A DNA stretch of 64,000 nucleotides from Actinomycetota bacterium (GCA_018821365.1 JAHJML010000138.1:1744-65743); one strand, 5' to 3'; counted from the first letter of the stretch, positions 9,105-44,634 are shown. Notes: generated from the sequence alone by a model not told the origin. Numbers and translations: made by a program.

Positions 9105-9129
9105 CGGTCCTCCTCCTCCATCCGGCTCC

Positions 9130-21887: not shown

Positions 21888-21936
21888 TCGGGGTCCCCCC
21901 GAGGTCGAAGAACCCAGAGGCTAACCCGGGATCAGC

Positions 21937-25998: not shown

Positions 25999-27231
25999 TC
26001 AGGCGGCGAAGACCTTCCTCATTGCCGCCAGCATGACGTCGATCTGCTCGTCGGTGATCACCAGCGGCGGGCACATCGACAGGTGGACCGGGGCGATCGG
26101 CCTCACGATGACGCCCTCCCCCAGGAGCGCGTCCCGGGCTTCCACCACGCTGCGCTCGGCCGGGAGCGAGATCCCCCACACCGCCCCTTCACCCCGCACA
26201 TCGGTGAGCAGGCCGTCCGATTGCATGGCCCGGAGACCGGCCTCCAGGCGGCCCCCGATCACCCGGGCGCGATCGAGCAGTCCCTCCCGCTCCTGGATCT
26301 CGATGGCCTTGAGGGCGGCCGCGCACGCCAACGGGTGCCCTGAGTAGGTGAAGCCGGTCCTCAGCAGGAACCCCTCGTTGGCTTCGAGTGCGGCTCGCAC
26401 CGCCGGCCCGACGATCACACCCGACAACGGGACGTACCCACTGGTCACCGCCTTCGCAAAGACGATCATGTCGGGCGTCACCCCGTAGAACTGACTGCCG
26501 AACCAGGTCCCGAGCCGCCCGAAACCGGTGATGACCTCGTCGTGGATCAGGTAGGCGCCGTAGGCATCGCACAGGTCCGCCAGATGCTCGAGATAGCCGG
26601 GCGGCGGCGGCCAGACGCCACCGGCACCCTGCAGCGGTTCGGTGATGATGGCGGCGATCTCGTCACCGTGGTCGGCGAACACCTGCTTCATGGCCTCTTC
26701 GTCATCGGCGCTCACGTTGATGACGCCGGGGACCAGCGATCCCCAGCCTTCCCGGTTGGGAGCGATGCCCTGCACCGAGGTCCCCCCGTAGTTGGTGCCG
26801 TGGTACCCGCGCTCGCGGCTGACGATGATCTGCCGCTCCGGGTGGCCCGCCTCGCGCTGGGCGATCCGCGCCAACTTCATGGCGGTGTCCACCGCCTCGG
26901 AACCGGAGGACCCCATGAACACCCTGGCATCCGCCAAGGGGGACAGTTCGACGATCCTGGCCGCCGCCTCCTCGGCCCTCGGGGTGGTGTACGGGTCGAA
27001 CGTGTGATAGGCCGCCAGGGTCCTCGCCTGCTCGGCGATCGCATCGGCCATCTCCTCCCGACCGTGGCCGATGTTGACGTACCACAGCGAAGCCATGCCG
27101 TCGATGTACTCCTTACCGGTGTCGTCCCAGACCACCGCCCCCTTTCCTCCGACGATCGAGAGGAAGTCCTGTTTGCGGGGCGGGGTGAATGGGTGCAAGA
27201 AGGGGCTGAGCATGGTGCCTCCCAGTGGCAC
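25999..27231 (-). CDS. class III (omega-type) PLP-dependent aminotransferase
   Basis: 410 aa (...SGSEAVDTAMKLAR..., DEVITGFGRLG, FAKAVTSGYVPL with the PLP lysine). Substrate not assignable. Confidence 0.85.
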   Translation of the reverse strand: MPLGGTMLSPFLHPFTPPRKQDFLSIVGGKGAVVWDDTGKEYIDGMASLWYVNIGHGREEMADAIAEQARTLAAYHTFDPYTTPRAEEAAARIVELSPLADARVFMGSSGSEAVDTAMKLARIAQREAGHPERQIIVSRERGYHGTNYGGTSVQGIAPNREGWGSLVPGVINVSADDEEAMKQVFADHGDEIAAIITEPLQGAGGVWPPPPGYLEHLADLCDAYGAYLIHDEVITGFGRLGTWFGSQFYGVTPDMIVFAKAVTSGYVPLSGVIVGPAVRAALEANEGFLLRTGFTYSGHPLACAAALKAIEIQEREGLLDRARVIGGRLEAGLRAMQSDGLLTDVRGEGAVWGISLPAERSVVEARDALLGEGVIVRPIAPVHLSMCPPLVITDEQIDVMLAAMRKVFAA

Positions 27232-27301: not shown

Positions 27302-28642
27302 GTGGCCAGACGTCGGGTGATCATCATCGGGGCCGCCGGCCGCGACTTCCACAACTTCAACACCCGGTACCGGGACGACCCGACCACCGATGTGGTGGCC
27401 TTCACCGCCGCCCAGATCCCCGACATCGACGGTCGGCGCTACCCCGCAGAACTGGCCGGGCCGCTCTACCCCGACGGCATCCCGATCTTCTCGCAGGACG
27501 AGCTCCCGGCGCTCATCACCGAACTCGCCGTGAACGAGTGCGCCTTCTCCTACAGCGACGTCCCCTACGCCTATGTGATGGGCCTGTCGGCGATCGTCCA
27601 GGCGGCCGGGGCCGGCTTCCTGCTGCTCGGGCCCGCTGAGACCCAGATCGAGAGCACCAAGCCGGTCATCTCGGTCTGCGCGGTGCGCACCGGCAGCGGC
27701 AAGAGCCAGACCTCCCGCAAGGTCGTGGAGACCCTCATGGCGGGGGACATCCGGGTGGTGGCGATCCGGCATCCCATGCCCTACGGCGACCTGGTCAAGC
27801 AGAGGGTGCAACGGTTCGCAGCCATCGAAGACCTCGCTCTCCACCAGTGCACCATCGAGGAGATGGAGGAGTACGAGCCGCACATCGTGCGCGGCAACGT
27901 CATCTACGCCGGGGTCGACTACGAGGCGATCATCCGGGCCGCCGAGAACGACCCCGGCGGCTGCGACGTGATCGTATGGGACGGTGGCAACAACGACTTC
28001 CCGTTCTACCAACCGGACCTCAGCATCACCGTCGTCGACCCGCATCGTCCCGGCCACGAACTCTCCTACTACCCGGGCGAAGTCAACCTGCGAACGGCCG
28101 ACGTCATCGTGATCAACAAGATGGACTCGGCACCTGCAGCGGGCATCGCCCAGGTGAAGGCCAACATTGCCGCCGCCAACCCAGCCGCCATCGTCGTCGA
28201 GGCCGATTCGGCACTGACGGTGGCCGATCCGTCGATCATCAAGGGCAAGCGGGTGCTCGTCATCGAAGACGGGCCGACCCTCACCCACGGCGAGATGAAG
28301 ATCGGGGCGGGCGCCGTCGCCGCCGAGCGGGCCGGGGCCGCCGAGTTGGTCGACCCGCGGCCCTATTTGGTGGGCAGGCTCAAGGAGACCTTCGCGTCCT
28401 ACCCGGGCATCGGGACGATCCTCCCGGCCATGGGCTACGGAGAGCAGCAACTGAAGGATCTCGAGGCCACCATCAACGCCACCGACTGCGACGCCGTGGT
28501 GATCGGGACCCCGATCGACCTGGCCCGGATCGTCCACATCGACAAGCCGGCCACCCGGGTCACCTACGACCTGGCCGAGCGGGGCGAGCCGAACCTGGCC
28601 GGGATTCTCGGCGACTTCGTGTCGCAACACGGACTGGGCTAA
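27302..28642 (+). CDS. COG2403-type P-loop protein (cyclic 2,3-diphosphoglycerate synthetase-like)
   Basis: GTG start proposed (MARRRVIIIGAAGRDFHNF). It has an N-terminal Rossmann-like domain and a central P-loop VISVCAVRTGSGKSQTS. Its overall length and organisation resemble the archaeal cpgS/COG2403 family. The assignment is tentative. Confidence 0.45.
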   Translation: MARRRVIIIGAAGRDFHNFNTRYRDDPTTDVVAFTAAQIPDIDGRRYPAELAGPLYPDGIPIFSQDELPALITELAVNECAFSYSDVPYAYVMGLSAIVQAAGAGFLLLGPAETQIESTKPVISVCAVRTGSGKSQTSRKVVETLMAGDIRVVAIRHPMPYGDLVKQRVQRFAAIEDLALHQCTIEEMEEYEPHIVRGNVIYAGVDYEAIIRAAENDPGGCDVIVWDGGNNDFPFYQPDLSITVVDPHRPGHELSYYPGEVNLRTADVIVINKMDSAPAAGIAQVKANIAAANPAAIVVEADSALTVADPSIIKGKRVLVIEDGPTLTHGEMKIGAGAVAAERAGAAELVDPRPYLVGRLKETFASYPGIGTILPAMGYGEQQLKDLEATINATDCDAVVIGTPIDLARIVHIDKPATRVTYDLAERGEPNLAGILGDFVSQHGLG

Positions 28643-29856
28643 TCGGACCCCCCGTCCAGGCGCAGGATCACCAACCCCGCCAGGTGCTCGCCGATCACCA
28701 GGGCGGCCGTCGCCGCCGGTGATGGAGCGCTCAACACGTGGATCAAGGGCCCCTCCCCGGCGATCACGAAGTCGTCGGCCAATTGCCCGTTCGGGAACAC
28801 CGCCTGGGCCCTGATCCCCGACCCGCCCCGATCGAGGTCGCCACTGCGGATCGCCGGGACGAGACGGCGGGCCTCCCGGGCGTACAGGGCACGACTCCGG
28901 GACCGCAGCATCTCCCCGAGGCCGGGGACGGCGTGGCGGGCGGCCAGCCTGCGGAACCCCCGATACCCGAGCACTTCGGTGAGCCCCGCCCAATCGGCCC
29001 GGGTCCCCCGGTAGTGCTCCCGGCCGAGGGCGAGCACCGCATTGGGGCCGACCTCGACCGAACCGTCGATGCGCCGGGTGAAGTGCACCCCGAGGAATGG
29101 GAAGCGGGGGTCGGGGACCGGGTAGATCAATCCCCCGACCAGGCCGGCCGCTTGCGCGGAGAGGACGTGGTACTCGCCCCGGAACGGGACGATGCGCACC
29201 GGGGGGTCCACCCCGGACATCGCCGCCACCCGGTCGGCGTGCAGGCCGGCCGCGTTGACCAGCGCCCGGGCGGCGATCGTCCTCTCCCCGGCGCCCACCA
29301 CCACCCCTCCGGAGCGGGTCTCGATGCGATCGACCTCGCAGCCGGTGAGGATCGATGCACCCCGATCCGCCAGGATCTGCCCGAGGCGGCGGGCCACCCC
29401 CCCGAAGTCGACCACCCCGGTGGACGGCACCCACAGGCCGGCGACGCCGGCGGCGTGGGGTTCGTGGTCGGCGATCCCGCTCGGCCCGAGCCGGCCGATG
29501 CCCTCCACCCCGTTGGCGGCGCCTCGCTCGCAGAGACCCTCGAGCCGGGCGATCTCGGCATCCGACACGGCGACGACGAGCTTTCCGGAGATGCGGACCG
29601 GGAGGCCCTCCTCCTCACAGAAAGCCAGCATCCGCCGGCGGCCTTCGACGCACAGCCTGGCCTTCAGCGAGCCGGGCCGGTAGTAGAGGCCGGAGTGGAG
29701 CACCCCGCTGTTGCGGCCGGTCTGGTGGGCGGCGAGCGCCGGTTCCTTCTCGAGCAGGGCGATGGCGATCCCGGGCCGGGCGATCTGCAGCGCCCGGGCG
29801 GTCGCCAGCCCGACGATGCCTCCCCCGACGACGACGACGTCGAACCGGTCGGTCAT
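28639..29856 (-). CDS. FAD-dependent L-2-hydroxyglutarate oxidase/dehydrogenase (LhgO-like)
   Basis: Start at MTDRFDVVVVGGGIVGLATA (FAD GxGxxG). DAO-family fold with LhgO/YgaF-like blocks (LHSGLYY, GxxxxGRNSGV). Confidence 0.75.
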   Translation of the reverse strand: MTDRFDVVVVGGGIVGLATARALQIARPGIAIALLEKEPALAAHQTGRNSGVLHSGLYYRPGSLKARLCVEGRRRMLAFCEEEGLPVRISGKLVVAVSDAEIARLEGLCERGAANGVEGIGRLGPSGIADHEPHAAGVAGLWVPSTGVVDFGGVARRLGQILADRGASILTGCEVDRIETRSGGVVVGAGERTIAARALVNAAGLHADRVAAMSGVDPPVRIVPFRGEYHVLSAQAAGLVGGLIYPVPDPRFPFLGVHFTRRIDGSVEVGPNAVLALGREHYRGTRADWAGLTEVLGYRGFRRLAARHAVPGLGEMLRSRSRALYAREARRLVPAIRSGDLDRGGSGIRAQAVFPNGQLADDFVIAGEGPLIHVLSAPSPAATAALVIGEHLAGLVILRLDGGSD

Positions 29857-29978
29857 CTGCGGCAGCCGGTGTCCATTCCCGCATTCTGGCGCCTGGGCGG
29901 GGCCGATCGGCCCTGGCACTCCTCCACCGATTATCGATTAGGTACGCTGGACACCACCAACCACGCAGGGAGCACACC

Positions 29979-31058
29979 ATGCCGAACATCGCCCTGATCC
30001 CCGGCGACGGAGTCGGGCCCGAGATCACCGACGAGGCCGTCCGCATCCTCGAGGCCGCCGCCCGGGTCTACGGCTTCCCGGTCGAGACCGAGATCTTCGA
30101 TTGGAGCTGCGACCGCTACCTGGCGCAGGGCGAGATGATGCCGGCGGACGCCCTCGAGACCCTGGCCGGTTTCGATGCGATCTTCCTGGGCTGCATCGGC
30201 GACGCCAACAAGGTCCCCGACCACGTCTCGCTGGAGATGCTGCTGGGGATCCGGGTGGGGTTCGACCAGTACGTCAACCTGCGGCCGATCCGCCTCTACC
30301 CCGGAGTCCCGACCCCGATCAGGACCGCCACCCCCGAGAGTGTCGACTTCGTGGTGATCCGCGAGAACACCGAAGGCGAGTACAGCCGTCAGGGCGGCTT
30401 CTTCCACCCCGACGCCGACGACGGATTCGCCATCCAGACCGGCATCTTCACCCGCAAGGGTTGCGAACGGGTGATCCGCTACGCCTTCGACCTGGCCGAG
30501 GAGCGCAAGGCCGCCGGGTACCAGGGCCGGGTGACCAACTGCACCAAGAGCAACGCCCTCAACTACTCGATGGTGTTCTGGGACAAGATCTACGCCGAGG
30601 TGGCCGAGGGCCATCCCGGCATCCAGCGCGACATGGCCCTGGTGGATGCGCTGACCATGTGGTTCGTCAAGAACCCCGAGTGGTTCGACGTGGTGGTCGC
30701 CTCCAACCTGTTCGGAGACATCATCACCGACCTGGGGGCGATGCTGCAGGGCGGCATGGGCTTGGCGGCCGGCGGCAACATCGACCCGGAGCGCCGCTAC
30801 CCGTCGATGTTCGAGCCGATCCACGGTTCGGCGCCCAAGTACACCGGCCAGCGGCGGGTCAACCCGATCGCCACCATCGAGGCGGTCCGGATGATGCTCG
30901 ACCACCTCGGCCAACCCGAGGCGGCCGCCGCCGTCGGGCGGGCCGTCGCCGGCACACTGGAGGCGGGCGAGATCCGCACCAGGGACATCGGGGGAACCAG
31001 CACGACCGACCAGGTGGGCGCAGAGGTGGCCCGCCGCATCACGGAGGAGCAGTCATGA
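29979..31058 (+). CDS. isocitrate/isopropylmalate dehydrogenase family enzyme, tartrate dehydrogenase/decarboxylase-like
   Basis: 359 aa ([48 protein letters not shown]), typical of beta-decarboxylating dehydrogenases and of TDH-like length. An AGGGA RBS lies upstream. Confidence 0.8.
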
Positions 31059-32074
31059 GCAAGATCAAGGTAGGCGTCGCCGGATACGGGGTGATCGGCC
31101 AGCGTCTCGCCGACGGGGTGGCACTGCAGGAGGACATGGAACTGGTCGGCGTCGCCGATGTCGCCCCCACCCTCCCGGTACGGGCCCTCGCCGAGAAGGG
31201 GATGCCGTACAAGATGTTCACGGCGGCTCCCGGTGCCGAGGCCGCCCTCACCGCCGCCGGCATCCCGGTCAGCGGCACCTTCGACGACCTGCTGGGCGAG
31301 GTCGACATCATGCTCGACGCCGCCCCGGGCGGGATCGGCGCCAAGAACAAGGAGAAGTACGTCGCCGCCGGAGTCAAGGGGGTGTTCCAGGGAGGTGAGG
31401 CCGGGTCGGTGGCCGACGTCTTCTTCCACGGCTACGCCAACTACGCCAGAGGGGTCGGCAAGGACTACCTCAAGCTGACCTCGTGCAACACCACGGGACT
31501 GATCCGGGCCGTCGACGCGCTCGACAAGGCGGTCGGGATCCACAAGGTGGCGATCACGATCATCCGCAGGATCGCCGACCCCGGCGACACCCACCGCGGC
31601 ATCGTCGACTCGCTGATGATGGAGGCGATCCCCAACCACCAGGCCGTCGACCTCATGGAGATCATGCCGCACGTCGACGCCACCGGGTTGCTGGTGCACA
31701 CCCCCATCACCCACGGCCACATCATCACCATCGTGGCGACCCCCAAGAAGGGCATCACCGACGACGAGGCGATCGACGTGTTCCGGGCCCACCCCCGGGT
31801 CCGCTCGGTCAGGATCGCCGACGGCTTCACCACCAACACGTCGCTGTTCAACTACGCCCGCTTCCTGGGCAAGCCGCGCGGTGACATGTACGAGATCGGC
31901 CTCTTCGAGGAGACGGTCGGCCACAGTGGGGACGACCTGATGTTCGCCATCAACATCCCCCAGGAGTCGGTGACCATCCCCGAGACCATCGACGCCGTCC
32001 GGGCGGCGATCCCGATGCAAGAGGACCAGGCCGAGGCGGTCGGGCTCACCAACCGGTACCTCGGCATGGCGTAG
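31055..32074 (+). CDS. type II (archaeal-type) glyceraldehyde-3-phosphate dehydrogenase
   Basis: 339 aa ([19 protein letters not shown] ... IMLDAAPGGIGAKNKEKY ... SCNTTGLIRAV ... IRRIADPGD) with block-by-block similarity to archaeal GAPDH, including the catalytic SCNTTGL cysteine motif. ATGA overlap with the upstream dehydrogenase. Confidence 0.88.
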   Translation: MSKIKVGVAGYGVIGQRLADGVALQEDMELVGVADVAPTLPVRALAEKGMPYKMFTAAPGAEAALTAAGIPVSGTFDDLLGEVDIMLDAAPGGIGAKNKEKYVAAGVKGVFQGGEAGSVADVFFHGYANYARGVGKDYLKLTSCNTTGLIRAVDALDKAVGIHKVAITIIRRIADPGDTHRGIVDSLMMEAIPNHQAVDLMEIMPHVDATGLLVHTPITHGHIITIVATPKKGITDDEAIDVFRAHPRVRSVRIADGFTTNTSLFNYARFLGKPRGDMYEIGLFEETVGHSGDDLMFAINIPQESVTIPETIDAVRAAIPMQEDQAEAVGLTNRYLGMA

Positions 32075-32076
32075 CG

Positions 32077-33303
32077 ATGTCGATCCGCTCCATCGACGAT
32101 CTCGAGGTCGGCGGCAAGCGGGTGCTGCTGCGGGTCGACATCAACTCACCGATCGACCCGTCCACCGGCCGGATCGCCGACGAGAACCGCATCGAGCAGA
32201 GCCTCCCCACGATTCGCGATCTGGCGGATCGGGGGGCCCGCCTGGTGATCATCTGCCATCAGGGCGACACCCTCGACTACCACAACCTGGTGGGGGTGGG
32301 CCAACACGCCGAGCGGCTCGCCGCCAAACTGGGACGGCCGGTCGGCTTCATCGACGACGTGGCCGGTCCGGCCGCCCGGGACCGGATCACCGCACTCGGC
32401 GACGGCGACATCCTGCTGCTCGACAACCTTCGCTACCTGACCGAAGAGGTGTCGACGTTCGAGCGCGACGTCAAGCTGAGCGTCGAGCAGATGGCCCACA
32501 CCTACCTGGTCCGCAGCCTGGCGCCGCTGTTCGACTTCTACGTCAACGACGCCTTTGCCGCCGCCCACCGGGCGTCGCCCTCGATGATCGGCTTCCAGCC
32601 GCTCCTCCCCTCGGCGGCGGGGCGGCTGCTGGAAGCCGAGGTCACTGCCATCACGAGCCTGATCGAGGACCCCCGCCGGCCTGCGGTCTTCCTGCTGGGG
32701 GGCCTCAAGGTGTCCGACGGCTTCTCGATGATGGGCAGGGTGCTCGCCGACGGCCTCGCCGACCGGGTGCTGACCTCCGGGGTCCTCGGGGAGATCTTCC
32801 TGACGGCGAGCGGAGTGGATCTCGGCGAGCCGACCACCGCCTTCATCGCCTCGCGCGACTTGACCCGGTATGTGGCGGTGGCGGCCGGCCTGCTGGCCGA
32901 TCACCCCGATCGCATCGCCCTGCCACTCGACGTGGCGGTGGTGGCCGACGGGGTGCGCCGGGAGCTCCCGGTGGCCGCCCTCCCGGCCGGCCGATTGATC
33001 GTGGACATCGGCGCCGCGACGATCTCCGCCTTCGAAGCCGAGATCGCCGCGGCGGGCACGGTGTTCGTGAACGGACCCGCCGGGGCGTACGAACAGGAGG
33101 GCGCCGACCTGGGGACGCGGCGGCTGTGGGCGGCGGTGGCCGCCACCGATGCCACCACACTCATCGGCGGAGGCGATACCGTGGCCAGCGCCCGCAAGTT
33201 CGTGGACACTGCGAAGATCGATCATGTGAGCACCGGCGGCGGAGCGCTGATCCGCTTCGTCAGCGGACAGCCCCTCCCGCTGCTGGAGGCCTTCGGAGTC
33301 TGA
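32077..33303 (+). CDS. pgk: phosphoglycerate kinase, archaeal-type
   Basis: 408 aa starting MSIRSIDDLEVGGKRVLLRVDINSPIDPSTGRIADENRI, with the archaeal PGK signature RVDINSPI. A C-terminal GGGDTV nucleotide domain is present. 2 nt gap after the GAPDH gene. Confidence 0.85.
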   Translation: MSIRSIDDLEVGGKRVLLRVDINSPIDPSTGRIADENRIEQSLPTIRDLADRGARLVIICHQGDTLDYHNLVGVGQHAERLAAKLGRPVGFIDDVAGPAARDRITALGDGDILLLDNLRYLTEEVSTFERDVKLSVEQMAHTYLVRSLAPLFDFYVNDAFAAAHRASPSMIGFQPLLPSAAGRLLEAEVTAITSLIEDPRRPAVFLLGGLKVSDGFSMMGRVLADGLADRVLTSGVLGEIFLTASGVDLGEPTTAFIASRDLTRYVAVAAGLLADHPDRIALPLDVAVVADGVRRELPVAALPAGRLIVDIGAATISAFEAEIAAAGTVFVNGPAGAYEQEGADLGTRRLWAAVAATDATTLIGGGDTVASARKFVDTAKIDHVSTGGGALIRFVSGQPLPLLEAFGV

Positions 33304-33319
33304 GGAAGGAGCGCGCCGC

Positions 33320-35161
33320 GTGACCATCGAGACCAGCGTGGAGGTCGTGGCCCCCACCGGGTTTTCGGTGAGCCGGTACTTCGTCGACCTGGCAGCCTCC
33401 GAGGTCCGCTGGGAACGGGCCGGCTGCGAGGACTGCGAGGACGCCCTCGGTGGGATCGCCAGAGCCACCAAGCTGCTGGGGCCGGTGCGGGTCGACGACC
33501 CGTATGCTCCCGATTCCCCCATCGTCATGAACCTCGGCCTGCTGAGCGGGACCAGGGTGATGACCGGGCTGCGCACCTTCTTCCACGGCTACTCGCCCCT
33601 CAAGACCTCCCTGTCCGGCAAGCCCGGCCTGATGTGGTCGGCGGGCAGCGGGCACTTCGGGACCAAGCTGCGGGGCCTCGGCATCGACGAGGTGGTCTTC
33701 ACGGGCAGGGCCACCCGGCCCACCCTGCTCAGGCTGAGCCCGGCCGCCGACCCGGAGGGAGCGGGGGGGCCGGCCCGCTTCGAGTTCCTCCCGGCGGCCG
33801 ACCTGGCCGGGCGGACGGTCAACGACCGCATCCAGGACCTGCACCGCCGCTATCCCGCGGCCCACTTCGCCGTCATCGGACCCGCCGGTGAGCACCCCGC
33901 ATCGGTGCGGTACGCCGCCATCGCCCTGTCGACCGACAACCAACTGAAGAGCGGCGACGCCAAGCCCCGCTACTGCGGCCGGGGCGGCTTCGGCGGGGTG
34001 CTCGGGTCCAAGAACCTGTTCGCCATCGCCGCCGATGGGCCCAACCCCGACGTGTCGAGCCGGGGACTGCGGGAGATCAACAAGGAGATCAACCTGGGCC
34101 AGGGCAGCGCCCGCTACCGGGACCTCCCCGACGACCGGGGAGGCACCTGGCGCACCATGAAGATGATGCAGGAGGCGGCCTCGCTCCCCGAGTACAACTT
34201 CGCCCCTACCGGCACCGACGTCTCCGTCCCGCTGCTGCGTCCCAGCGTCGAGGCGGGCCCCTTCGTCGTCAAGGCCGAGGGCTGCTACCTGTGCGGCATC
34301 AAGTGCCACAAGAACGTCTACGACCAGGAGCCCGGCGGGGAGGCGGGCCGCTTCCGGGCCAAGGTCGATTTCGAGCCGATCACCCTGCTGTCGTCCAACC
34401 TCGGCATCTTCGACCCCGATGACGGCCTCGACCTGATCGAGATGAGCGACGAACTGGGGATGGACTCGATCTCGCTGGGGGTGACGCTGGGGTACGCCAT
34501 GGAGTACAACCACCGCCACCCGGCGGACCCGATCGCCGACGGCATCTCCTACGGGGATGGTGCCGCCGTCAGGAAGGCCGTCGCCGCCGTCGCCGCCGGC
34601 GCATGCGCCGAACTGGGCCAGGGCGTCAAACGCTTGGCGGATGCCACCGGAGAGCCCGGCTACGCCATGCACTCCAAGGGCGTCGAGTATCCGGCCTACC
34701 AGCCGCAGACCAATCCGGGCTACCCCTGGGCGCTGGCCGGCGGGCACATGTCGATGCGGACCTTCTTCCTGATGGTGATCGAACGGGAGACCGGCCTCGA
34801 CTACTGGGTGGACGCCATCACCAACCGGGGACTGCTGTACCTGATGGACGACATCACCGGGCTCTGCAAGTTCACCAACGCAAGCGCCGATCTCGAAGCC
34901 GAGGCGATCAGGATCGCCGCCGGCCTCGACATCGATGCCGACGGACTGCTCGACGTCACCCGCCGCACCTTCCTGCGCGGCTACCTCGCCGAACGGGCCC
35001 AGGGTTTCGAGCCTGCCGACTACTCGCTCCCGGCCGAAGCCCACCAACCGGCGGCGGGGATGACCATGCCGCACTTCAGCACCCCGGAGTTCTTCGCGGC
35101 GCTGCGCGACCGGGTCAACGCCGCCTTCGACGAGCGGGCCGAGGCCGCCGGGCTGCTCTGA
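33320..35161 (+). CDS. aldehyde:ferredoxin oxidoreductase family protein (tungsto/molybdo-pterin, divergent; GAPOR/FOR-like candidate)
   Basis: 613 aa with AOR N-terminal blocks (ATKLLGPVRVDDPYAPDSPIVMNLGLLSGT...KSPLTG-like LKTSLSGKPG...SGHFGTKLRGLGIDEVVF). It has the [4Fe-4S] ligand motif C-x2-C-x3-C (CYLCGIKC) and the pterin-binding DELGMDSIS. Confidence 0.75.
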   Translation: MTIETSVEVVAPTGFSVSRYFVDLAASEVRWERAGCEDCEDALGGIARATKLLGPVRVDDPYAPDSPIVMNLGLLSGTRVMTGLRTFFHGYSPLKTSLSGKPGLMWSAGSGHFGTKLRGLGIDEVVFTGRATRPTLLRLSPAADPEGAGGPARFEFLPAADLAGRTVNDRIQDLHRRYPAAHFAVIGPAGEHPASVRYAAIALSTDNQLKSGDAKPRYCGRGGFGGVLGSKNLFAIAADGPNPDVSSRGLREINKEINLGQGSARYRDLPDDRGGTWRTMKMMQEAASLPEYNFAPTGTDVSVPLLRPSVEAGPFVVKAEGCYLCGIKCHKNVYDQEPGGEAGRFRAKVDFEPITLLSSNLGIFDPDDGLDLIEMSDELGMDSISLGVTLGYAMEYNHRHPADPIADGISYGDGAAVRKAVAAVAAGACAELGQGVKRLADATGEPGYAMHSKGVEYPAYQPQTNPGYPWALAGGHMSMRTFFLMVIERETGLDYWVDAITNRGLLYLMDDITGLCKFTNASADLEAEAIRIAAGLDIDADGLLDVTRRTFLRGYLAERAQGFEPADYSLPAEAHQPAAGMTMPHFSTPEFFAALRDRVNAAFDERAEAAGLL

Positions 35162-35170: not shown

Positions 35171-36460
35171 TCAATCGATCCCGGCGATGGCCGCCGCGAT
35201 GATCTCACCGGCCCGATCGACCTCGGCAGCGGTCACCGTCAGCGGCGGAGCGATCCTGAGGACGTTCCCGTAGAGGCCGCCCTTCCCGATCAGCAGCGAC
35301 CTCGCCTTGCACGCCTCCGACAACCGGGCGGCCCGTGGCGCCGAGGGCGACAGCGTCCCCGGTTCGACCGTCTCGATCGCCTGCATCAAGCCCTTGCCCC
35401 GCACCTCGGCGATCCACTCGACGCCGGCGGCGGCCTCCTCGAGGTGGCCTCTGAGCCGGCGGCCCATCGCCAGGGCATTGTGCTGGAGGTCGTGCTCGTC
35501 GAGATACCGCAGGGTGGCGATGGCGGCCGCACACGACAGCGGGTTGCCCCCGAAGGTGGAGATCGAGTTGGCGGGCAGCGAGTCGATGATCTCGGCCCGC
35601 CCCACCACGCCGCCCAGGGCGACGCCGTTGCCCACCCCCTTGGCGAATGTGAGCAGGTCCGGAGTGACGCCGTGGGCCTGGTAGCCCCAGTAGTTCTCAC
35701 CGGTCCGTCCCCACCCGGTCTGCACCTCGTCGGAGACGAAGAGGATGCCGTGGTCGGCGAGGATCTTCTGGAAGGCGCCGAGCAGTCCATCCGGCGGGGT
35801 GGCAAAGCCGCCGACCCCCTGGATCGGCTCTGCGATGAAGCAGGCGACATCGCCCGAGGTCATCATGTCGATGACCTGCTCGAGGTCGGCGACCGAGGCC
35901 TCGATGTAGGCGTCGTCGTCGAGTCCCCGAAACGGCGTCCGCAGCGGGTAGCCGCCGTGGACGAAGTTGACGCTCAACCCGCTGACGCTGGTCGGCGACC
36001 AGGATCGATGCGAGGTGATGGCGATGGCGGTGAAGGAACGCCCGTGGTAGCTGTTGCGCAGCGCCAGCACCTGATTCGATCGCCGGTAGGTGGTCGCCAG
36101 CAGCAGGGCGGCGTCGTTGGCCTCGGTCCCCGAGGGGGTGAAGAAGACCTTGGCATCGGGGATGCCCGAGCGCGCGACGATCATCTCGGCCAACTCGATC
36201 ATCGGCTCGGAGAGGTACAGCGTCGAACTGTGGAGCAAGCGGGCGGCCTGCTCCCCGATGGCCCGGGTGATCTCGGGGACGTTGTGGCCGATCATCGTGG
36301 TGAGGATCCCCCCGAAGAAGTCCAGGTACTCGTTGCCCTCGACATCCCACACCGTGCGGCCCTCGCCGGCGGCGATGGCGATCGGTTCCTCGTAGTAGAC
36401 CGCCAGCCACGACGGCGCCACCTTCCGGTGCCGTTCCCGGAGTTCCCGATTCGTCGTCAT
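35171..36460 (-). CDS. class III PLP-dependent aminotransferase
   Basis: Start at MTTNRELRERH, with a GGAGG RBS upstream. It has FTPSGTEANDAAL, DEVQTGWGRTG and FAKGVGNG (PLP Lys). 4-aminobutyrate/omega-amino acid aminotransferase-like. Confidence 0.85.
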   Translation of the reverse strand: MTTNRELRERHRKVAPSWLAVYYEEPIAIAAGEGRTVWDVEGNEYLDFFGGILTTMIGHNVPEITRAIGEQAARLLHSSTLYLSEPMIELAEMIVARSGIPDAKVFFTPSGTEANDAALLLATTYRRSNQVLALRNSYHGRSFTAIAITSHRSWSPTSVSGLSVNFVHGGYPLRTPFRGLDDDAYIEASVADLEQVIDMMTSGDVACFIAEPIQGVGGFATPPDGLLGAFQKILADHGILFVSDEVQTGWGRTGENYWGYQAHGVTPDLLTFAKGVGNGVALGGVVGRAEIIDSLPANSISTFGGNPLSCAAAIATLRYLDEHDLQHNALAMGRRLRGHLEEAAAGVEWIAEVRGKGLMQAIETVEPGTLSPSAPRAARLSEACKARSLLIGKGGLYGNVLRIAPPLTVTAAEVDRAGEIIAAAIAGID

Positions 36461-36479: not shown

Positions 36480-38450
36480 TCACCGCTCGTCCGTGATCGG
36501 GCCCGACCCTTCCTGGTCGTCGTCCATGACGAAGCCCATCCTCCGCAGGTGGGCGCGGACCTCCGCATCGGCCAGGATCTCGAAGAGCGCCCGCACCGCA
36601 GGGCGCTCCCGCCGGTCGTCGCGCACCAGCAGGTCGTAGCGCTCGTCCTGCACGAAGCGGAACTCCAGGCCCGCCCGGGTGGCGATGGTGTCGAGGGTCA
36701 TCCCCCAATCCGCCCTGCGCTGCTCGACGGCGGCCGCCACCCCGTGATGGGTCCTCACCTGGTGCAGGTAGCCGTCGGGGCGAGCGTCCCCCAGCAGGCG
36801 GTCGATGAGGACCCGGGTGCCGCTGCCGACGTTCCGGTTCACCATCCGCAGGCCGCCCGGCACTGCGCCTGCCAGGAAGGCGGCGGCATCCTCGCCCAAC
36901 CCGGCGTGCTTGGAGCGGAAGACGATGCCCTGTCGCCGCCGGTAGCCGGGTAGCAGCGACGCCCCCTCCGGCACGAAAGCCCGGTTGTACTCGCCGGTGG
37001 CCGGGTCCATCAGGTGGATCCCGGCGACGTCGCCCTCCCCCCTCCGCAATGCCGCCACCCCGCCCATCGAGCCCACCCAGACCGCCTTGACCCGGAACCC
37101 TCGCGAGGCGACCAGTCCCAGCAGGTGGTCGAATCCCTCGCAGTTGCTCCCGATCGCCGCCAGGTCGGCGGGCCGGACGTCGGGGTTGATCGGCCGTACG
37201 ACGACGGCCGCTCCCTCCTCCAGGTACTCGATGGCGGCCGGGATGCGGATGAACCCGTCCGCCCTGCCGAAGGCGGTGACGCTGCCCGAACCTGCCCCGA
37301 GGGGATAGGCGGCGGGGCCCTGCTGCCCCTCGACCAGGTCGACGAGCACGTAGTGGGTGCGGCCCGGCACCGAGTCGATCCGCATGGGGGTGATCGCGGC
37401 GATCTCGCCGGCCAACCCGTTGCCGAAGCCGGACAGCCGGCGCAGCAGGGGAGCGACGAACTCGTGGAAGGTGAAGACGGCAGAGGTGGGGAACCCCGGC
37501 AGGACCACCACCGGCCTCCCCGCCAGCACCGCCAGCAGGATCGGCTTGCCGGGTTTGAGCGCCACCCCGTGCACCAGCACCTCCGAGGCCGGGAGGCGGG
37601 AGGCCAACCGCTGCACCACCACGGCGTTGACGTCGCCGTCGCCCTTGGAAGTGCCGCCGGACAGCAGCACAGCATCGGCGGGATGGTCGCCGCCGATCAG
37701 AGCCGTGATCGCCTCCTCGACTCGCTGCTCGTCGTCGGGGACGATCCCGGCGGGGACCCCATCGCACCCGAGTTCGGCCACCGCATCCAGGAGGATCCGC
37801 TGGTTGGAGTCGTAGACCTCCCCGGCCGCGATAGGGCCGCCGGGGGGGACGATCTCGTCTCCCGTCGAGAGCACCGCCACCCGCGGCCTGCGGACCACCT
37901 CGATCTCTCCGACCCCAACCGCCGCCAGCACCCCGGTCTCCCGTGAGGTGAGGCGGGTGCCCCGCCGCACCACGACGTCGCCCCGGCCGATGTCCGATCC
38001 CGCAAAGGTGAGGTTCCCTCCGGGCGCCACCGGGCGGGACACCTCCACCCGTTTCCCGGCGAGATGGGTGTCCTCCACCATGACCACTGCGTCGGCCCCC
38101 CGGGGGACGACGGCGCCGGTGGCGATCGGCACCGCCCGTCCCGGTCCCACCTCGAACCCGGGGGCGGGGCGGTCGCCGGCGGCCAGCGGCGGCCCGAGCA
38201 GCGTGAGCACGACCGGGGCAAGCTCCTCGGCCCCGGCGGTGTCGGTGGCGCGCACTGCAAAGCCGTCCATGTTGCTGCGATCGAACCCCGGGACGTCCAC
38301 GGCGGCGGCGACGTCGGCAGCCAGCACCCGGCCCAGGGCGGCATCGAGGGCGACGGTCTCGACGGCGGGCGCCAGATGAGCACACGCCTCCTCGAAGCGC
38401 CGCCGGGCCTCCGCCTCGTCCACCACGTCGAGGAACTGGCGCTGTCTCAT
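36480..38450 (-). CDS. molybdopterin molybdo-/tungsto-transferase MoeA fused to a C-terminal periplasmic-binding-protein-like (COG1910 molybdate/tungstate-binding) domain
   Basis: The N-terminal ~400 aa is MoeA-like (FDRSNMDGFAV ... GGTSKGDGD ... VLPGFPTSAV). The C-terminal ~230 aa is a PBP type 2-like domain. ATGA overlap with the upstream MoaD-MoeA gene. Confidence 0.8.
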   Translation of the reverse strand: MRQRQFLDVVDEAEARRRFEEACAHLAPAVETVALDAALGRVLAADVAAAVDVPGFDRSNMDGFAVRATDTAGAEELAPVVLTLLGPPLAAGDRPAPGFEVGPGRAVPIATGAVVPRGADAVVMVEDTHLAGKRVEVSRPVAPGGNLTFAGSDIGRGDVVVRRGTRLTSRETGVLAAVGVGEIEVVRRPRVAVLSTGDEIVPPGGPIAAGEVYDSNQRILLDAVAELGCDGVPAGIVPDDEQRVEEAITALIGGDHPADAVLLSGGTSKGDGDVNAVVVQRLASRLPASEVLVHGVALKPGKPILLAVLAGRPVVVLPGFPTSAVFTFHEFVAPLLRRLSGFGNGLAGEIAAITPMRIDSVPGRTHYVLVDLVEGQQGPAAYPLGAGSGSVTAFGRADGFIRIPAAIEYLEEGAAVVVRPINPDVRPADLAAIGSNCEGFDHLLGLVASRGFRVKAVWVGSMGGVAALRRGEGDVAGIHLMDPATGEYNRAFVPEGASLLPGYRRRQGIVFRSKHAGLGEDAAAFLAGAVPGGLRMVNRNVGSGTRVLIDRLLGDARPDGYLHQVRTHHGVAAAVEQRRADWGMTLDTIATRAGLEFRFVQDERYDLLVRDDRRERPAVRALFEILADAEVRAHLRRMGFVMDDDQEGSGPITDER

Positions 38451-39952
38451 CCGGCTCCCCCGTACAGCCCGACCTCCACCTCGGCGCCCTCGGCGAACCC
38501 CTCTGAGCCCGCCGGAACGATGACGAACCCGTCGGCCCTGGTCACCGAGGACAGCACCGACGCCCCCCCGATCGCCAGTGGTTCCACCGCGCCGTCGCGG
38601 ATCAGGACCCGGGCGTAGTCGGTGCGCCCGATCCGGGAGACGAGCCGCTTGGACAACGGCAGCCGCAGTCTGCGATGGGGCCAGGCAGGGCTGCGGCCCC
38701 CCAACACCCGGATGACCGGTCCTGCGAAGAACTCATAGGCGACCAGGCAGGAGACCGGGTTGCCCGGGAGCAGCAGCACCGGCGCCCCCCCGATCCTTCC
38801 GATCCCGGTCGGAGACGACGGCCGCATCGCCACCCCGTGGATCTGCAGTTCACCCAACTCGGCCACCAGCCGCGGGGTGTGATCCTCCTGCCCCACCGAC
38901 ACCGCCCCTGCGGTGACGATCACATCGGCACCGGGGCGCTGCAGTGCCTCCCGCATCGGGCCGGCGCCATCAGGGAGTCGGACGACCTCGGCGACCACGC
39001 CGCCGTCGCGCCCGACGAGCGCCGCCAGCATCGGGGAGTTGCTGTCGACGATCCTGGTCCCGACCGGAGCCGCCCCGGGGGCCAACAACTCGTCGCCCGA
39101 CACGATCACCCGCACCAGGGGGCGGCGGTGGACCGGCACCGTCGCCCGCCCGATGGCGGCCAGCAGGCCGAGGTCCTGGGGCAGCAACATCCGCCCGGCA
39201 CCCAGTACCTCAGTACCGGCGACCACGTCCTCCCCGATCCTCCCCACGTTGCGGCCGGGGGCGACCGGGGCCTTCACCATCACCAGGCCGCCGTCCTCTG
39301 CGGCGTCCTCGGCCCGTAGCACGGCATCGGCGCCCTCCGGCAGCGGGGCCCCGGTCATGATCCGCACCGCGGCGCCCGATGCGACCTCCGGGACCTCGGA
39401 GTCGCCCGGCATCGAGGCCCCGGCCACCGCCAGGGCGATCGGGGCGTAGGGAGTGGCGCCGAATGTGTCATCGGCGACCACCGCGTAGCCGTCCATGGTC
39501 GATCTGCGGAAGGAAGGCAGGTCGACGGTGCTGATGATCGCCCCGCCGCTCACCCGGTTGGCGGCATCCGCCAGGGCCACCTCTTCGGCGGCCAGGGGAG
39601 CCACCCCGGAGAGGGCGGCCGCCAGCGCATCTTCGACCGTCGCCCGCTCCCGGAACCCGATCATCCGCACGTCGTCGTGGCCGCCCCCGGCGATGCTCAC
39701 CAGCACGGTCACCAGGTCGGTGGCGGCCACCGCGGTCGATGCGACATCCTCTCGGTCGATCCGGCGCTCCCCGACGAACACGGCGAGGTGGGGGCGCAGC
39801 ATGCCTCGCTCGTCCACCAGGCGCTCGGTCAGATCGGGGTGGGCGGCGCAGGCCGCCGCGACGACCTCGGCGACGGTCTCCCCCTCCACCACGATCCGAT
39901 CGTGCTCGGCGGCGTAGCGCCGGAGTGCCGAGGGGATGCGGACGGTGACCAC
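38447..39952 (-). CDS. MoaD-like ubiquitin-fold domain (ending in Gly-Gly) fused in-frame to a second MoeA paralogue
   Basis: The first ~90 aa (MVTVRIPSALRRYAAE...LAVFVGERRI...DLVTVLVSIAGG) has MoaD/ThiS length and pattern, with a C-terminal GG. It is followed without a stop by a MoeA domain (RRSTMDGYAV ... AGAVSVGQED ... LLPGNPVSCLV). Confidence 0.7.
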   Translation of the reverse strand: MVTVRIPSALRRYAAEHDRIVVEGETVAEVVAAACAAHPDLTERLVDERGMLRPHLAVFVGERRIDREDVASTAVAATDLVTVLVSIAGGGHDDVRMIGFRERATVEDALAAALSGVAPLAAEEVALADAANRVSGGAIISTVDLPSFRRSTMDGYAVVADDTFGATPYAPIALAVAGASMPGDSEVPEVASGAAVRIMTGAPLPEGADAVLRAEDAAEDGGLVMVKAPVAPGRNVGRIGEDVVAGTEVLGAGRMLLPQDLGLLAAIGRATVPVHRRPLVRVIVSGDELLAPGAAPVGTRIVDSNSPMLAALVGRDGGVVAEVVRLPDGAGPMREALQRPGADVIVTAGAVSVGQEDHTPRLVAELGELQIHGVAMRPSSPTGIGRIGGAPVLLLPGNPVSCLVAYEFFAGPVIRVLGGRSPAWPHRRLRLPLSKRLVSRIGRTDYARVLIRDGAVEPLAIGGASVLSSVTRADGFVIVPAGSEGFAEGAEVEVGLYGGAG

Positions 39953-40032: not shown

Positions 40033-41994
40033 TCACACCCCGATCTCATCGGCGATCCACGCCAGCCCCAATCCCTCCAGGGTCTCCCGGGTGGGGCTGC
40101 CGGTGTCGAGGTCCCACCCGGCCATGCGGTGGTACTCGTCGAGGGCCGCCGCCAACTCGGCCTCGTCGATCGACACCCCGTCGCTCATCCCGCCCTGGAG
40201 GGGCTCGTCGAAGAGCCGGCGCGGCAGCGTGTCGCTCTCCCGGGTCAGGCCTTCCCGGGCGTTGAAGGCCCGCAGCATGTTGAGGCGCCGCGCCCCGATC
40301 TCCTGGAGGCCGTCCACAGTGGTCTGGACACCGGTCACCGCCGTCACCACCCCGGCCAACTCCTCCATGCCCATCAGCTCCCAGGCGGGGCCGTACACGA
40401 ACTGACAGACGTTGACGGTGTCCATCGCCGAGTAGGCGTACTGGGTCCGCAGGGCGAACTCCACCTTCTGTCGATTCAGCACCATCGGATCCTGCGGCTC
40501 GGTGAGCCCGAGGCTCGCCATCCGCCTGCCGTACTTGTCGGGGCTGGTTTCGATGGTCTCCGGCTCGTACCCCGGGTCGTGCTCGCTGGATTGGTGGTCG
40601 GCGCCGAAGGGGTTGACCGCATAGACCAGTGCCAGGGACCGTTTCACGTGCGGCATGTGGGCGGGCAGTTCGGTGCCCTTCACCGTCATCGCGTAGGCGC
40701 CGGCGCCGTTGCCGATGGATGCCGCCGCCCGGGCCGATCCTTCGGCGAGCACGTCCCCAAAGCCCTCTCGCTCCAGGGTGGCCTCCAGCATCCGGATCAT
40801 GGCCGGGGCGTCACCCCAGGCCAGCTCGATCCCCCCGGTGTCCTTCGCCGTGATCACACCGCGCTCGAAGCACTCGATGGCAAAGGCCATCGTTGCGCCG
40901 GCGGCGATGGTGTCCACTCCGTACTCGTTGCAGAGTTGGTTGGCGTAGGAGACGGCGCCCAGGTCGTCGATGTCGCAATACGATCCGAACACCGAGGTCG
41001 TCTCGTACTCGGGGCCGCCCGACGCCGGGTCGATCGGGCGCCCCTCCCACTCGGATTCGACCACCCGCTTGCAGCGGATGGCGCACGAGAAGCAGGTGTC
41101 CCGGCCGGTCTTCATCTGGGTGCCCTCGGCGGCCCCCCGCAGGAACTCGTCGAACAATCGGGGGCCCGAGATGGCGGCAGCCCGCGCCTCGGGCATGGCG
41201 CCGCTGGTCCAGTTCCGGGTGGGGAGACCCCCGACGGCGCTCTGACTCTCCAGGATGTCGATGGTCCCGTACTGGGCGAGGCCGACGATGTCCTCGTCCT
41301 CCCTGACCCCGACCAGCGAGGCCTGCATGATGGCGCGGAGGCCCTCGGGATCGGCCAGGTCGAGCTTCTTCTTGCCGCCCCGCACCACAATCGCCTTGAG
41401 GTTCTTGCTCCCCATCACGGCGCCCATCCCGGTGCGGCCGTGGGCCCGGTTCGCCATGTTCATGATGGCGGCGAAGCGCACCTGCTTCTCACCGGCCGGC
41501 CCGATCTGGGCGATCTGGACCCGGGTGTCGTCGAGTTCCTCCTGCAGCATCCGGTCGACCCGGCGGGTGCGCTTGCCCCACAGATGGGCGGCCAGTCGCA
41601 GCTCGGCCTCCCCTTGATGGATCCACAGGTAGACCGGCTCCGGCGAGGCGCCCCGGATCACGACGGCGTCGAACCCGGCGAACTTGAGCTCGGCGGGCCA
41701 GAACCCGCCCGCCTGGCTGTCGCCGGCCCCACCGGTGAGCGGCGACTTGGCAACGGCGGTGCAGCGGCTCTGTCCGGCGATGGCGGCCCCGGTCACGCCC
41801 GACAGCGCCAGGGTCAGGGTGTTCTCCGGTCCCAGCGGGTCCGCCCCCGCCGGGGTGTGCTTGAACAGGTAGTAGAGGCCCAGCGCACTCCCTCCCACGT
41901 AGGTGCGGTAGAACTCCTCCGAGGGCTCTTCCACGGCGATCTGGTGGGTGGTCAAATCGACGTGGAGTATCTTGCCGGCGTATCCGTAGAGCAT
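40033..41994 (-). CDS. tungsten/molybdenum-containing aldehyde:ferredoxin oxidoreductase (AOR)
   Basis: Start at MLYGYAGKILHVDLTT (AOR N-terminal consensus); an alternative upstream ATG lies at 42024. It has KSPLTGGAGDSQAGGFW, the [4Fe-4S] C-x2-C-x3-C motif (CFSCAIRC) and the pterin-binding CNEYGVDTIAAG, and is canonical in length. Confidence 0.9.
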   Translation of the reverse strand: MLYGYAGKILHVDLTTHQIAVEEPSEEFYRTYVGGSALGLYYLFKHTPAGADPLGPENTLTLALSGVTGAAIAGQSRCTAVAKSPLTGGAGDSQAGGFWPAELKFAGFDAVVIRGASPEPVYLWIHQGEAELRLAAHLWGKRTRRVDRMLQEELDDTRVQIAQIGPAGEKQVRFAAIMNMANRAHGRTGMGAVMGSKNLKAIVVRGGKKKLDLADPEGLRAIMQASLVGVREDEDIVGLAQYGTIDILESQSAVGGLPTRNWTSGAMPEARAAAISGPRLFDEFLRGAAEGTQMKTGRDTCFSCAIRCKRVVESEWEGRPIDPASGGPEYETTSVFGSYCDIDDLGAVSYANQLCNEYGVDTIAAGATMAFAIECFERGVITAKDTGGIELAWGDAPAMIRMLEATLEREGFGDVLAEGSARAAASIGNGAGAYAMTVKGTELPAHMPHVKRSLALVYAVNPFGADHQSSEHDPGYEPETIETSPDKYGRRMASLGLTEPQDPMVLNRQKVEFALRTQYAYSAMDTVNVCQFVYGPAWELMGMEELAGVVTAVTGVQTTVDGLQEIGARRLNMLRAFNAREGLTRESDTLPRRLFDEPLQGGMSDGVSIDEAELAAALDEYHRMAGWDLDTGSPTRETLEGLGLAWIADEIGV

Positions 41995-42978: not shown

Positions 42979-44571
<1,593 letters not shown>

Positions 44572-44634
44572 CAGTACAGTGATCCAGGCGCACATGGTAC
44601 CCGGGGAACTCGGGGGTCCCCGAGCGACGTCTGA

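Follow-up and report, generated by a model that had tools for sequence, protein, structure and literature searches.

Within a 64-kb stretch of DNA (64,000 nucleotides, JAHJML010000138.1:1744-65743 of GCA_018821365.1, hereafter the window) from a metagenome-assembled genome (MAG) of the actinobacterial class Acidimicrobiia, we analyzed a block of four genes at positions 29979-35161 that all read in the same direction on the plus strand, in DNA with a G+C content of about 70% throughout. The first gene (29979..31058) encodes a 359-amino-acid beta-decarboxylating dehydrogenase of the Iso_dh family that resembles tartrate dehydrogenase (TDH-like) and is proposed to act as a decarboxylating D-malate (or tartrate) dehydrogenase. 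It is followed by genes for a phosphorylating aldehyde dehydrogenase of the type II glyceraldehyde-3-phosphate dehydrogenase family (GAPDH2; 31055..32074, 339 amino acids, predicted NAD-type), for a putative acyl-phosphate:ADP phosphotransferase of the phosphoglycerate kinase family that lacks the Arg65 phosphate ligand (PGK-like; 32077..33303, 408 amino acids), and for a divergent tungsto/molybdopterin, 4Fe-4S enzyme of the aldehyde:ferredoxin oxidoreductase family (AOR-like; 33320..35161, 613 amino acids), which is part of a separate conserved cluster. A GGGAG Shine-Dalgarno sequence precedes the ATG of the TDH-like gene at 29979, the GAPDH2 start overlaps the TDH-like stop via ATGA, two nucleotides separate the TAG of GAPDH2 from the PGK-like start, and a 16-nt spacer carrying the Shine-Dalgarno sequence GGAAGGAG lies between the PGK-like stop and the GTG start of the AOR-like gene, which on this spacing is likely to be co-transcribed with the PGK-like gene. 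The original prediction, made from the window alone, had described these four genes with their overlap and two short spacers, and had placed a beta-decarboxylating dehydrogenase first and an AOR-family enzyme last; coordinates and junctions were confirmed, as were both family assignments, through Pfam matches to Iso_dh (282 bits) and to AFOR_N (113.7 bits) and AFOR_C (137.9 bits). Two further MAGs assigned to Acidimicrobiia/Actinomycetota (GCA_018819625.1 and GCA_043826125.1) carry an identical GAPDH in a matching gene order.

GAPDH2 passed both curated models for type II GAPDH, NF003251 (376.3 bits, cut-off 185) and TIGR01546 (281.9 bits, cut-off 232.9), contains the SCNTT motif, and found archaeal GAPDHs as all of its top four PDB matches (E 1e-58 to 2e-70), so that the archaeal-type family assignment made originally stood. 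The block-level identity to archaeal enzymes that had been noted with it comes to just 33-39% between the GAPDH2 clade and the four archaeal GAPDH structures of our reference set, which share 47-60% among themselves, and identity within the clade is 58-90%. For the comparison of residues we aligned 78 clade members with L-INS-i after filtering of the sequences, using Methanothermus fervidus numbering, and took the roles of the catalytic residues, of Arg167/Arg168 at the site for the phosphate of glyceraldehyde 3-phosphate (GAP), of His193/His194 at the inorganic-phosphate site and of Lys33 from work on the archaeal enzyme (PMC12041015). Ser139, Cys140, Asn141, Arg167, Arg168, Asp171, His193, and His219 were invariant (78/78). 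GAPDH2 thus shares with the archaeal enzymes (M. fervidus 1CF2 and Pyrococcus horikoshii 2CZC; EC 1.2.1.59) its family, its sequence pattern and the pairs Cys140/His219, Ser139/Asn141, and Arg167/Arg168, and because catalytic and anion-site residues are kept it should still be a thiol-dependent phosphorylating aldehyde dehydrogenase that binds an anionic substrate. It differs from them at two positions that are uniform across the clade: Lys33, a ligand of the 2'-phosphate of NADP that is present in all four archaeal structures, is replaced by Asp in 78/78 members including the window protein, and His194 is replaced by Gln in 78/78. As a general rule for Rossmann folds, Asp at the position of Lys33 is an NAD-type signature, and Asp33 would fit a catabolic, NAD-type role rather than the anabolic one of the archaeal enzymes, which serve gluconeogenesis, whereas GAPDH2 is found in bacterial catabolic operons.

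The PGK-like protein matched PF00162 with 348.5 bits over the full model (1-379 of 379), but passed none of the NCBIfam PGK equivalogs. Its best PDB match was the archaeal PGK of P. horikoshii (2CUN), with 247.7 bits versus 199 for the best bacterial structure and 37% identity versus 35% to bacterial PGKs, in a comparison that covers PDB entries rather than a wide tree; the predicted membership in the PGK family was therefore upheld, and the predicted archaeal affinity turned out to be marginal. We compared 63 clade members with archaeal and bacterial reference structures. Like PGKs of both domains (2CUN; 1VPE and 1PHP; EC 2.7.2.3), the window protein has the full-length fold and the ligands of the hydroxyl and carboxyl groups, retaining Asp23, Asn25, Arg38, His62, Arg122, Arg170, Lys215, and Asp218, five of which (Lys215, Asp218, Asp23, Asn25, and Arg38) are conserved in 58-63 of the 63 members. 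In PGK, the 3-phosphate of 3-phosphoglycerate (3PG) is bound by three arginines, one of them Arg65, within a basic patch formed by His62, Arg65, Arg122, and Arg170 (PMC7729029). Unlike the archaeal and bacterial references, in which residue 65 is Lys or Arg, the clade has Asp (40), Ser (15), or Gly (8) at this position and never a basic residue (63/63), with Asp in the motif HQGDTLDY of the window protein; it is also always paired with GAPDH2 instead of standing in a gap-pgk-tpi operon. The changes in GAPDH2 and the PGK-like protein would be expected for a substrate whose distal group is smaller and less charged than phosphate, though they do not amount to proof.

The TDH-like protein aligns over its full length with the tartrate dehydrogenase/decarboxylase of Pseudomonas putida (3FLK), its best PDB match with 336 bits, compared to 249 bits for LeuB of Mycobacterium tuberculosis (1W0D). 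Its gene does not stand in a leu operon and is instead linked to the GAPDH2-PGK pair in Acidimicrobiia and in two Bacillota, a linkage unreported in open-access papers on TDH and on the D-malate dehydrogenase DmlA. In 13 of 80 related loci it stands immediately 5' of GAPDH2. This context would favor D-malate or tartrate over 3-isopropylmalate as the substrate.

When one genome was scanned for each species, at least 554 stretches were found to encode a relative of GAPDH2, and the best 80 of these were analyzed as loci. All of these best 80 are bacterial (67-90% identity) and belong to Acidimicrobiia, Thermoleophilia, Dehalococcoidia, Anaerolineae, Clostridia, Lachnospiraceae, Christensenellaceae, Spirochaetes, Desulfovibrionaceae, Planctomycetota, and Atribacterota, including the cultured species Clostridium magnum and C. 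peptidivorans. In 65 of the 80 loci, GAPDH2 is immediately followed by a PGK-like gene, and the pair is carried by Actinomycetota, Chloroflexota, Bacillota, Spirochaetota, Desulfovibrionaceae, Planctomycetota, and Atribacterota, so the pair appears to be a distinct and long-established bacterial lineage of both families. Two GAPDH2 copies per genome, standing in differing catabolic clusters, were present in C. magnum DSM 2767 (L069 and L072), where each copy has its PGK, and in MAG_Ve_Sed_51 (L028 and L030), an arrangement that argues against a housekeeping role. Ten loci in which GAPDH2 has no PGK (L020, L021, L022, L024, L025, L028, L030, L035, L037, and L051; Acidimicrobiia where classified, with GAPDH2 at about 10001-11014 in loci with full flanks) form a tight subclade of 87% mutual identity. 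Eight of the ten stand in clusters of the sulfoquinovose type, with an SftI-like isomerase (below its cut-off), a TAL/FSA aldolase, a Gfo/Idh protein, a SuyB-like GD_AH dehydratase, and an Ldh_2 protein, which suggests that the PGK-less GAPDH2 is a sulfolactaldehyde dehydrogenase whose substrate is the sulfonate analogue of GAP.

To describe the gene context we clustered all open reading frames (ORFs) neighboring the 80 loci and annotated the clusters. A gene for a malate-acting enzyme was found within about 9 kb in 42 of the 65 loci with a PGK-like gene, and in 32 of the 41 for which both flanks are complete, but in none of the 15 loci without one. The partners were LarA-type proteins (28 loci), NAD(P) malic enzyme (15), and TDH-like enzymes (13), and in no locus did a TDH-like gene occur together with malic enzyme or malate racemase. 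The LarA homologue passed the equivalog for nickel-dependent malate racemase, NF052593 (566 versus 500 bits), a group with members shown by experiment to racemize malate (PMC7583248). A split transketolase accompanies the pair in 23 loci and an E1 component in 8, with one or the other present in 24 of the 65, and sugar ABC transporters and LacI/DeoR regulators recur. IolD, IolE, and IolG passed their equivalog cut-offs and are adjoined by an IolB-family isomerase, whereas, in the 13 loci with Iol and transketolase genes, the other 100 genes showed no recurrence of the families of IolC (PfkB), IolJ (F_bP_aldolase, the class II aldolase), and IolA (Aldedh). Gene order illustrates the range of these clusters: in C. 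peptidivorans (L075) a substrate-binding protein, ABC protein, and permease precede GAPDH2, PGK, the transketolase halves TK_N and TK_C, IolB, IolD, IolE, and IolG; L082 reads GAPDH2, PGK, malic enzyme, malate racemase, TK_N, TK_C; and three Acidimicrobiia loci (L007, L008, and L017) read TDH, GAPDH2, PGK, a small gene, TK_N, TK_C, SDR, MBL, MFS. In five loci from Bacillota and Desulfovibrionaceae (L038, L044, L057, L059, and L064), genes for E1 alpha, E1 beta, E2, and E3 of the 2-oxoacid/acetoin-dehydrogenase type stand before GAPDH2-PGK in the place of transketolase, joined in L038 and L044 by a lipoate ligase and a radical-SAM gene. Among these E1-type loci, a TDH-like gene follows the pair only in L038 and L044; genes for malic enzyme and malate racemase are present in L059 and L064, and all three are missing from L057.

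Given this context, we propose that GAPDH2 and the PGK-like protein are an uncharacterized pair of bacterial subfamilies that form a catabolic module turning an aldehyde via its acyl phosphate into an acid with gain of ATP, the likely acid being D-malate, a proposal to which we give an even chance of being correct. In the other phyla, IolG, IolE, IolD, and IolB would make 5-dehydro-2-deoxy-D-gluconate, which, seen from its CH2OH end, is a D-threo 2-ketose, the configuration required by transketolase. The split transketolase (or the E1/E2/E3 complex) would cleave such a 2-ketose acid, transferring the C2 unit and leaving D-malic semialdehyde. The substrate of GAPDH2 would accordingly be a 2-hydroxy-aldehyde in which a carboxylate takes the position occupied by the phosphate in GAP, most probably D-malic semialdehyde itself (OHC-CHOH-CH2-COO-); gene context argues for such a physiological substrate other than GAP or 1,3-bisphosphoglycerate (1,3-BPG), a further point in which GAPDH2 would differ from the archaeal enzymes. 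With NAD+ and phosphate, GAPDH2 would oxidize D-malic semialdehyde to D-malyl phosphate, from which the PGK-like protein would phosphorylate ADP, yielding D-malate and ATP. The TDH-like enzyme, with the chemistry of EC 1.1.1.83, would then convert D-malate to pyruvate and CO2 by oxidative decarboxylation, a last step that in the other phyla could fall to the nickel-dependent malate racemase together with an L-malic enzyme. Because cleavage by transketolase leaves a D-2-hydroxy aldehyde and hence D-malate, the scheme would explain why an enzyme for D-malate or a racemase is needed, and since D-malate requires either a TDH-like enzyme or a racemase with L-malic enzyme, it matches the mutually exclusive pattern of these genes in the loci. 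For loci with a TDH-like gene, tartaric semialdehyde, the transketolase product of 5-ketogluconate, may alternatively be converted to tartrate. An uncharacterized C3/C4 acid pathway involving the TDH-like enzyme had been anticipated by the original prediction, and the context across 80 species supports this with D-malate or tartrate as the acid; the order of steps is reversed, however, as GAPDH and PGK most likely act upstream of the TDH-like step instead of receiving D-glycerate from it by way of 3PG toward GAP.

Tentatively, and with somewhat less than an even chance in our judgment, we extend this to a multi-phylum carboxy-analogue of lower glycolysis (D-malic semialdehyde to D-malyl phosphate to D-malate plus ATP) that would close a transketolase-dependent, IolC/IolJ-independent route for myo-inositol and ketoacids and would be the physiological source of D-malate for the very widespread nickel-dependent malate racemases, with the PGK-less sister subclade doing likewise with sulfolactaldehyde. 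The related loci share IolG, IolE, IolD, and IolB with the canonical myo-inositol pathway, and the intermediate 5-dehydro-2-deoxy-D-gluconate should for that reason be common to both. They differ from it in that IolC, IolJ, and IolA are replaced by the split transketolase, GAPDH2, the PGK-like protein, and malate racemase, malic enzyme, or a TDH-like enzyme; the window itself has no Iol genes. A published inositol pathway in Dysosmobacter follows the kinase/aldolase route. Malate-derived semialdehyde also occurs in aerobic carnitine degradation (CntAB), in which malic semialdehyde is oxidized to L-malate by a non-phosphorylating aldehyde dehydrogenase with no gain of ATP (PMC11353897), and malyl phosphate occurs in a synthetic pathway, in which the distal (C4) carboxyl is phosphorylated by an engineered aspartate kinase and reduced by an engineered aspartate-semialdehyde dehydrogenase (PMC5481828). 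In contrast to both, the natural GAPDH/PGK-type pair proposed here would act oxidatively and on the carboxyl beside the hydroxyl. In valinophos biosynthesis, a pair of GAPDH and PGK homologues may act on phosphonate analogues, a precedent on which our proposal does not rely. The open-access literature yielded no account of a GAPDH-II/PGK pair taking part in the breakdown of inositol or malate, and publication in a subscription journal is possible.

Comparison with other Acidimicrobiia showed that the AOR-like gene has a history of its own. The protein is a distant relative of the AOR structure 1AOR (105 bits) in which CylCgikC and GLCkF align with the 4Fe-4S ligands Cys288, 291, 295, and 494, and the DELGxD pterin motif is kept; in a scan of 1.84 billion representative sequences it fell into a small subfamily without a named or characterized relative, and it is 30-39% identical to unnamed related proteins from Woesearchaeota and ANME-1. 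Four other Acidimicrobiia contigs (L083, L084, L086, and L087) carry the AOR-like gene without GAPDH or PGK, in the company of a class-III aminotransferase, alanine dehydrogenase, two genes of unknown function, MoeA-PBP, MoeA and, usually, a canonical AOR. In L086 this backbone reads aminotransferase (AT3), hyp395, hyp446, AOR-like, MoeA-PBP, MoeA, AOR, and the window retains its counterparts at 76% (AT3), 75% (hyp446), 68% (AOR-like), 67% (MoeA-PBP), 62% (MoeA), and 73% (AOR) identity, with the LhgO-like, TDH-like, GAPDH2, and PGK-like genes sitting between hyp446 and AOR-like and an extra aminotransferase after AOR-like. Adjacency of PGK and AOR-like was confined, among the 80 loci, to a single lineage of genus level (L001, L002, and L004). 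The block from LhgO-like to PGK was thus inserted into a pre-existing Acidimicrobiia AOR-like cluster, which makes the four-gene operon a composite, in which the AOR-like gene is probably co-transcribed owing to its position and is unlikely to form an ancestral functional unit with the pair. The AOR-like cluster itself resembles a pathway, dependent on tungsten or molybdenum, that would turn an amine via an aldehyde into an acid.

The individual parts of this cluster in the window start with the class-III (omega) aminotransferase gene AT3 at 25999..27231 on the minus strand (Aminotran_3, 305 bits; 76% identity to its equivalent in L083 as well as L086) and the conserved gene of unknown function hyp446 at 27302..28642 on the plus strand, which has a weak cobW match and is 75-77% identical to the gene directly 5' of AOR-like in L083 and L086. 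The two unknown genes of the cluster encode proteins of about 390 and 446 amino acids without a Pfam family, and some versions of the cluster add arginase-family and amidase genes. Next to hyp446, on the minus strand, lies the first gene of the inserted block (28639..29919), encoding an FAD-dependent protein like L-2-hydroxyglutarate oxidase (LhgO-like; NF008726, 486 bits versus a cut-off of 299; Pfam DAO). It is divergent from the TDH-like gene and adjoins it also in L002, an arrangement of the closest relatives only. The 59-nt region between the two (29920..29978) holds the start signals of both genes and contains no sigma-70 consensus, although scans for promoters and terminators are uninformative in DNA of 70% GC. 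Downstream of AOR-like and convergent with it, a second class-III aminotransferase gene (35171..36460, minus strand; Aminotran_3, 297 bits) is also called in L001 and is not at this position in L086. It is followed, likewise on the minus strand, by MoeA fused to a PBP-like oxyanion-binding domain (36480..38450; NF011068, 684 versus 534 bits; Pfam MoeA_N, MoCF_biosynth, MoeA_C, and PBP_like), which serves metal insertion into the pterin cofactor and is conserved beside the AOR-like gene in other contigs, a second MoeA paralogue (38447..39664; identified by Pfam and by a gene call in L001), and a canonical aldehyde:ferredoxin oxidoreductase (40033..41994; AFOR_C 373 bits, AFOR_N 249 bits).

Several observations weigh against the D-malate module. 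We infer the ATP yield, and our assignment of substrate and direction rests on gene context; within the window, a search of all 64 kb for homologues of transketolase, Iol proteins, malate racemase, malic enzyme, E1, and transaldolase found none, so the step producing the aldehyde is not encoded nearby, and a transaminase acting on 4-amino-3-hydroxybutyrate would be a purely speculative source. No malate enzyme lies near the pair in 23 of the 65 PGK-containing loci, many of which are on incomplete contigs. The TDH-like protein scored 450.6 bits against TIGR02089, the model for TDH/D-malate dehydrogenase, just under its curated cut-off of 470.4, and 400.6 bits against NF002898, the model for actinobacterial LeuB, just over its cut-off of 393. 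An AOR gene follows PGK in three Dehalococcoidia loci too, as an independent juxtaposition, and AOR enzymes may be functionally linked to the module. Finally, conservation of the Ps-site residues Arg167/Arg168 and of most 3PG ligands means that the pair may act on genuine GAP and 1,3-BPG, and the yeast PGK variant R65Q (1QPG) was stable enough for crystallization and presumably retained activity, so that a non-basic residue 65 may leave activity on 3PG. These last points lead directly to an alternative that we hold to be unlikely but still deserving serious weight, in which the pair are genuine NAD-dependent GAPDH and PGK isoenzymes acting on GAP, 1,3-BPG, and 3PG and recruited by sugar-catabolic operons for more lower-glycolytic capacity. 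The curated type II GAPDH models and the intact catalytic residues speak for it, as do the carbohydrate-catabolic nature of the loci and the fact that GAP is a co-substrate of transketolase and transaldolase pathways. Such isoenzymes would leave unexplained, however, the tight and mutually exclusive association with malate enzymes, the loss of Arg65 in every PGK-like protein, and the lack of any other oxidizer for the aldehyde left by transketolase in Iol clusters without recurrent IolC, IolJ, and IolA, and the two copies in one Clostridium genome likewise speak against them.

The module might also run reductively, from D-malate or a related acid and ATP via the acyl phosphate to an aldehyde that is then aminated by class-III aminotransferases or handled by the AOR-like enzyme, in parallel to aspartate kinase and aspartate-semialdehyde dehydrogenase. 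Both GAPDH and PGK catalyze reversible reactions, the block has an omega-aminotransferase gene on either side in the window, and archaeal type II GAPDHs operate reductively (PMC12525153), but we consider this improbable: the replacement of Lys33 points to an NAD-type and typically catabolic enzyme, the other loci are uptake and catabolic operons with sugar ABC transporters, Iol genes, and decarboxylating malate enzymes, and both aminotransferases are part of the AOR-like cluster that was there before the insertion, outside the inserted block. The original prediction had favored acquisition of an archaeal gluconeogenic gap/pgk unit with a GAPOR-type counterpart in the AOR-like enzyme, or, as a variant, delivery of D-glycerate by the TDH-like enzyme toward 3PG and GAP. 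What supports this is that the best solved structures for both GAPDH and PGK are archaeal, that an AOR-family gene lies 16 nt downstream of PGK, and that P. putida TDH converts meso-tartrate to D-glycerate. It is nevertheless very improbable, as it sits poorly with the size of the bacterial clade and its distance from archaeal GAPDHs, with the lost NADP ligand, and with the insertion that made AOR-like, normally apart from the pair, its neighbor. The composition check suggested at the time for a foreign island found the four genes native to the window, with a third-position G+C content (GC3) of 0.91-0.95 versus 0.89-0.91 in flanking genes and a codon usage that departs less than average from that of the remaining window (z -1.07 to -0.12); together with the bacterial distribution this led us to reject recent archaeal transfer, and, as a corrective result, the pair provides no evidence of archaeal gene transfer into this actinobacterium. 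A GAPOR-type role of the AOR-like enzyme found no support either. It shares the AOR family and intact 4Fe-4S and pterin motifs with GAPOR of Pyrococcus and GOR of Caldicellulosiruptor, but its conserved partners in four other genomes are genes of amine catabolism and of the cofactor rather than glycolytic genes, and neither curated models (a weak generic AOR match only) nor its nearest relatives, unnamed or generic AOR, indicated GAPOR/GOR affinity, in an analysis in which GAPOR and GOR sequences were not themselves compared. The absence of glycerate kinase and ferredoxin genes noted originally held up, with no ferredoxin motif in any frame of the 64-kb window; the former counts against the D-glycerate variant, and the latter against a coupled cycle in which the AOR-like enzyme would oxidize the aldehyde shared with GAPDH2 and reduce ferredoxin, and PGK and GAPDH2 would turn the acid back into the aldehyde at the expense of ATP and NADH, for a net ATP-driven reduction of ferredoxin by NADH. 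Co-transcription of the three genes here, as judged from spacing, intact cofactor ligands of the AOR-like enzyme, and the separate occurrence of AOR after PGK in Dehalococcoidia would suit such a cycle, yet the adjacency is restricted to the one lineage with the insertion and the idea is entirely speculative, leaving it barely credible in our view.

If the D-malate module proposed here is correct, thousands of bacterial and MAG annotations as type II GAPDH and PGK would be wrong, together with the reconstructions of glycolysis and gluconeogenesis that count them. For anaerobes such as gut Lachnospiraceae, Clostridia, Spirochaetes, and subsurface Chloroflexota, it would define a new catabolic step that yields ATP, along with a new branch for the degradation of inositol and ketoacids. 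What malate racemases do in vivo is left open by the literature on LarA, which makes no reference to the context of the pair (PMC7583248, PMC11770544), and the module would offer a concrete, testable answer to this question. It would also provide natural enzymes for malyl-phosphate chemistry, which has so far come only from engineered enzymes of the aspartate pathway (PMC5481828).

In three Dehalococcoidia loci (L036, L045, and L046; about 9000-14100), an Fe-alcohol dehydrogenase gene is followed by GAPDH2, PGK, a canonical AOR of 577 amino acids, and then malic enzyme or an SDR. The remaining genes of the window are ordinary actinobacterial housekeeping genes, including those for PASTA-PBP, LytR-CpsA-Psr, F420 ligase, acyl-CoA carboxylase, and methylmalonyl-CoA mutase. 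Long ORFs with coding-type GC3 and no Pfam match at E <= 1e-5 lie at 11221-14079 and 6710-8929 on the minus strand and at 51280-52644 and 47208-47648 on the plus strand, two of which span 952 and 739 amino acids when read from stop to stop. Upstream of the block, positions 21210-25244 encode a biotin ligase, a carboxyltransferase, and a fused biotin carboxylase-BCCP (acyl-CoA carboxylase), and downstream of the tungsten-enzyme cluster, positions 42979-44634 encode the large subunit of methylmalonyl-CoA mutase; the genes of both regions belong to ordinary propionate and branched-chain metabolism.

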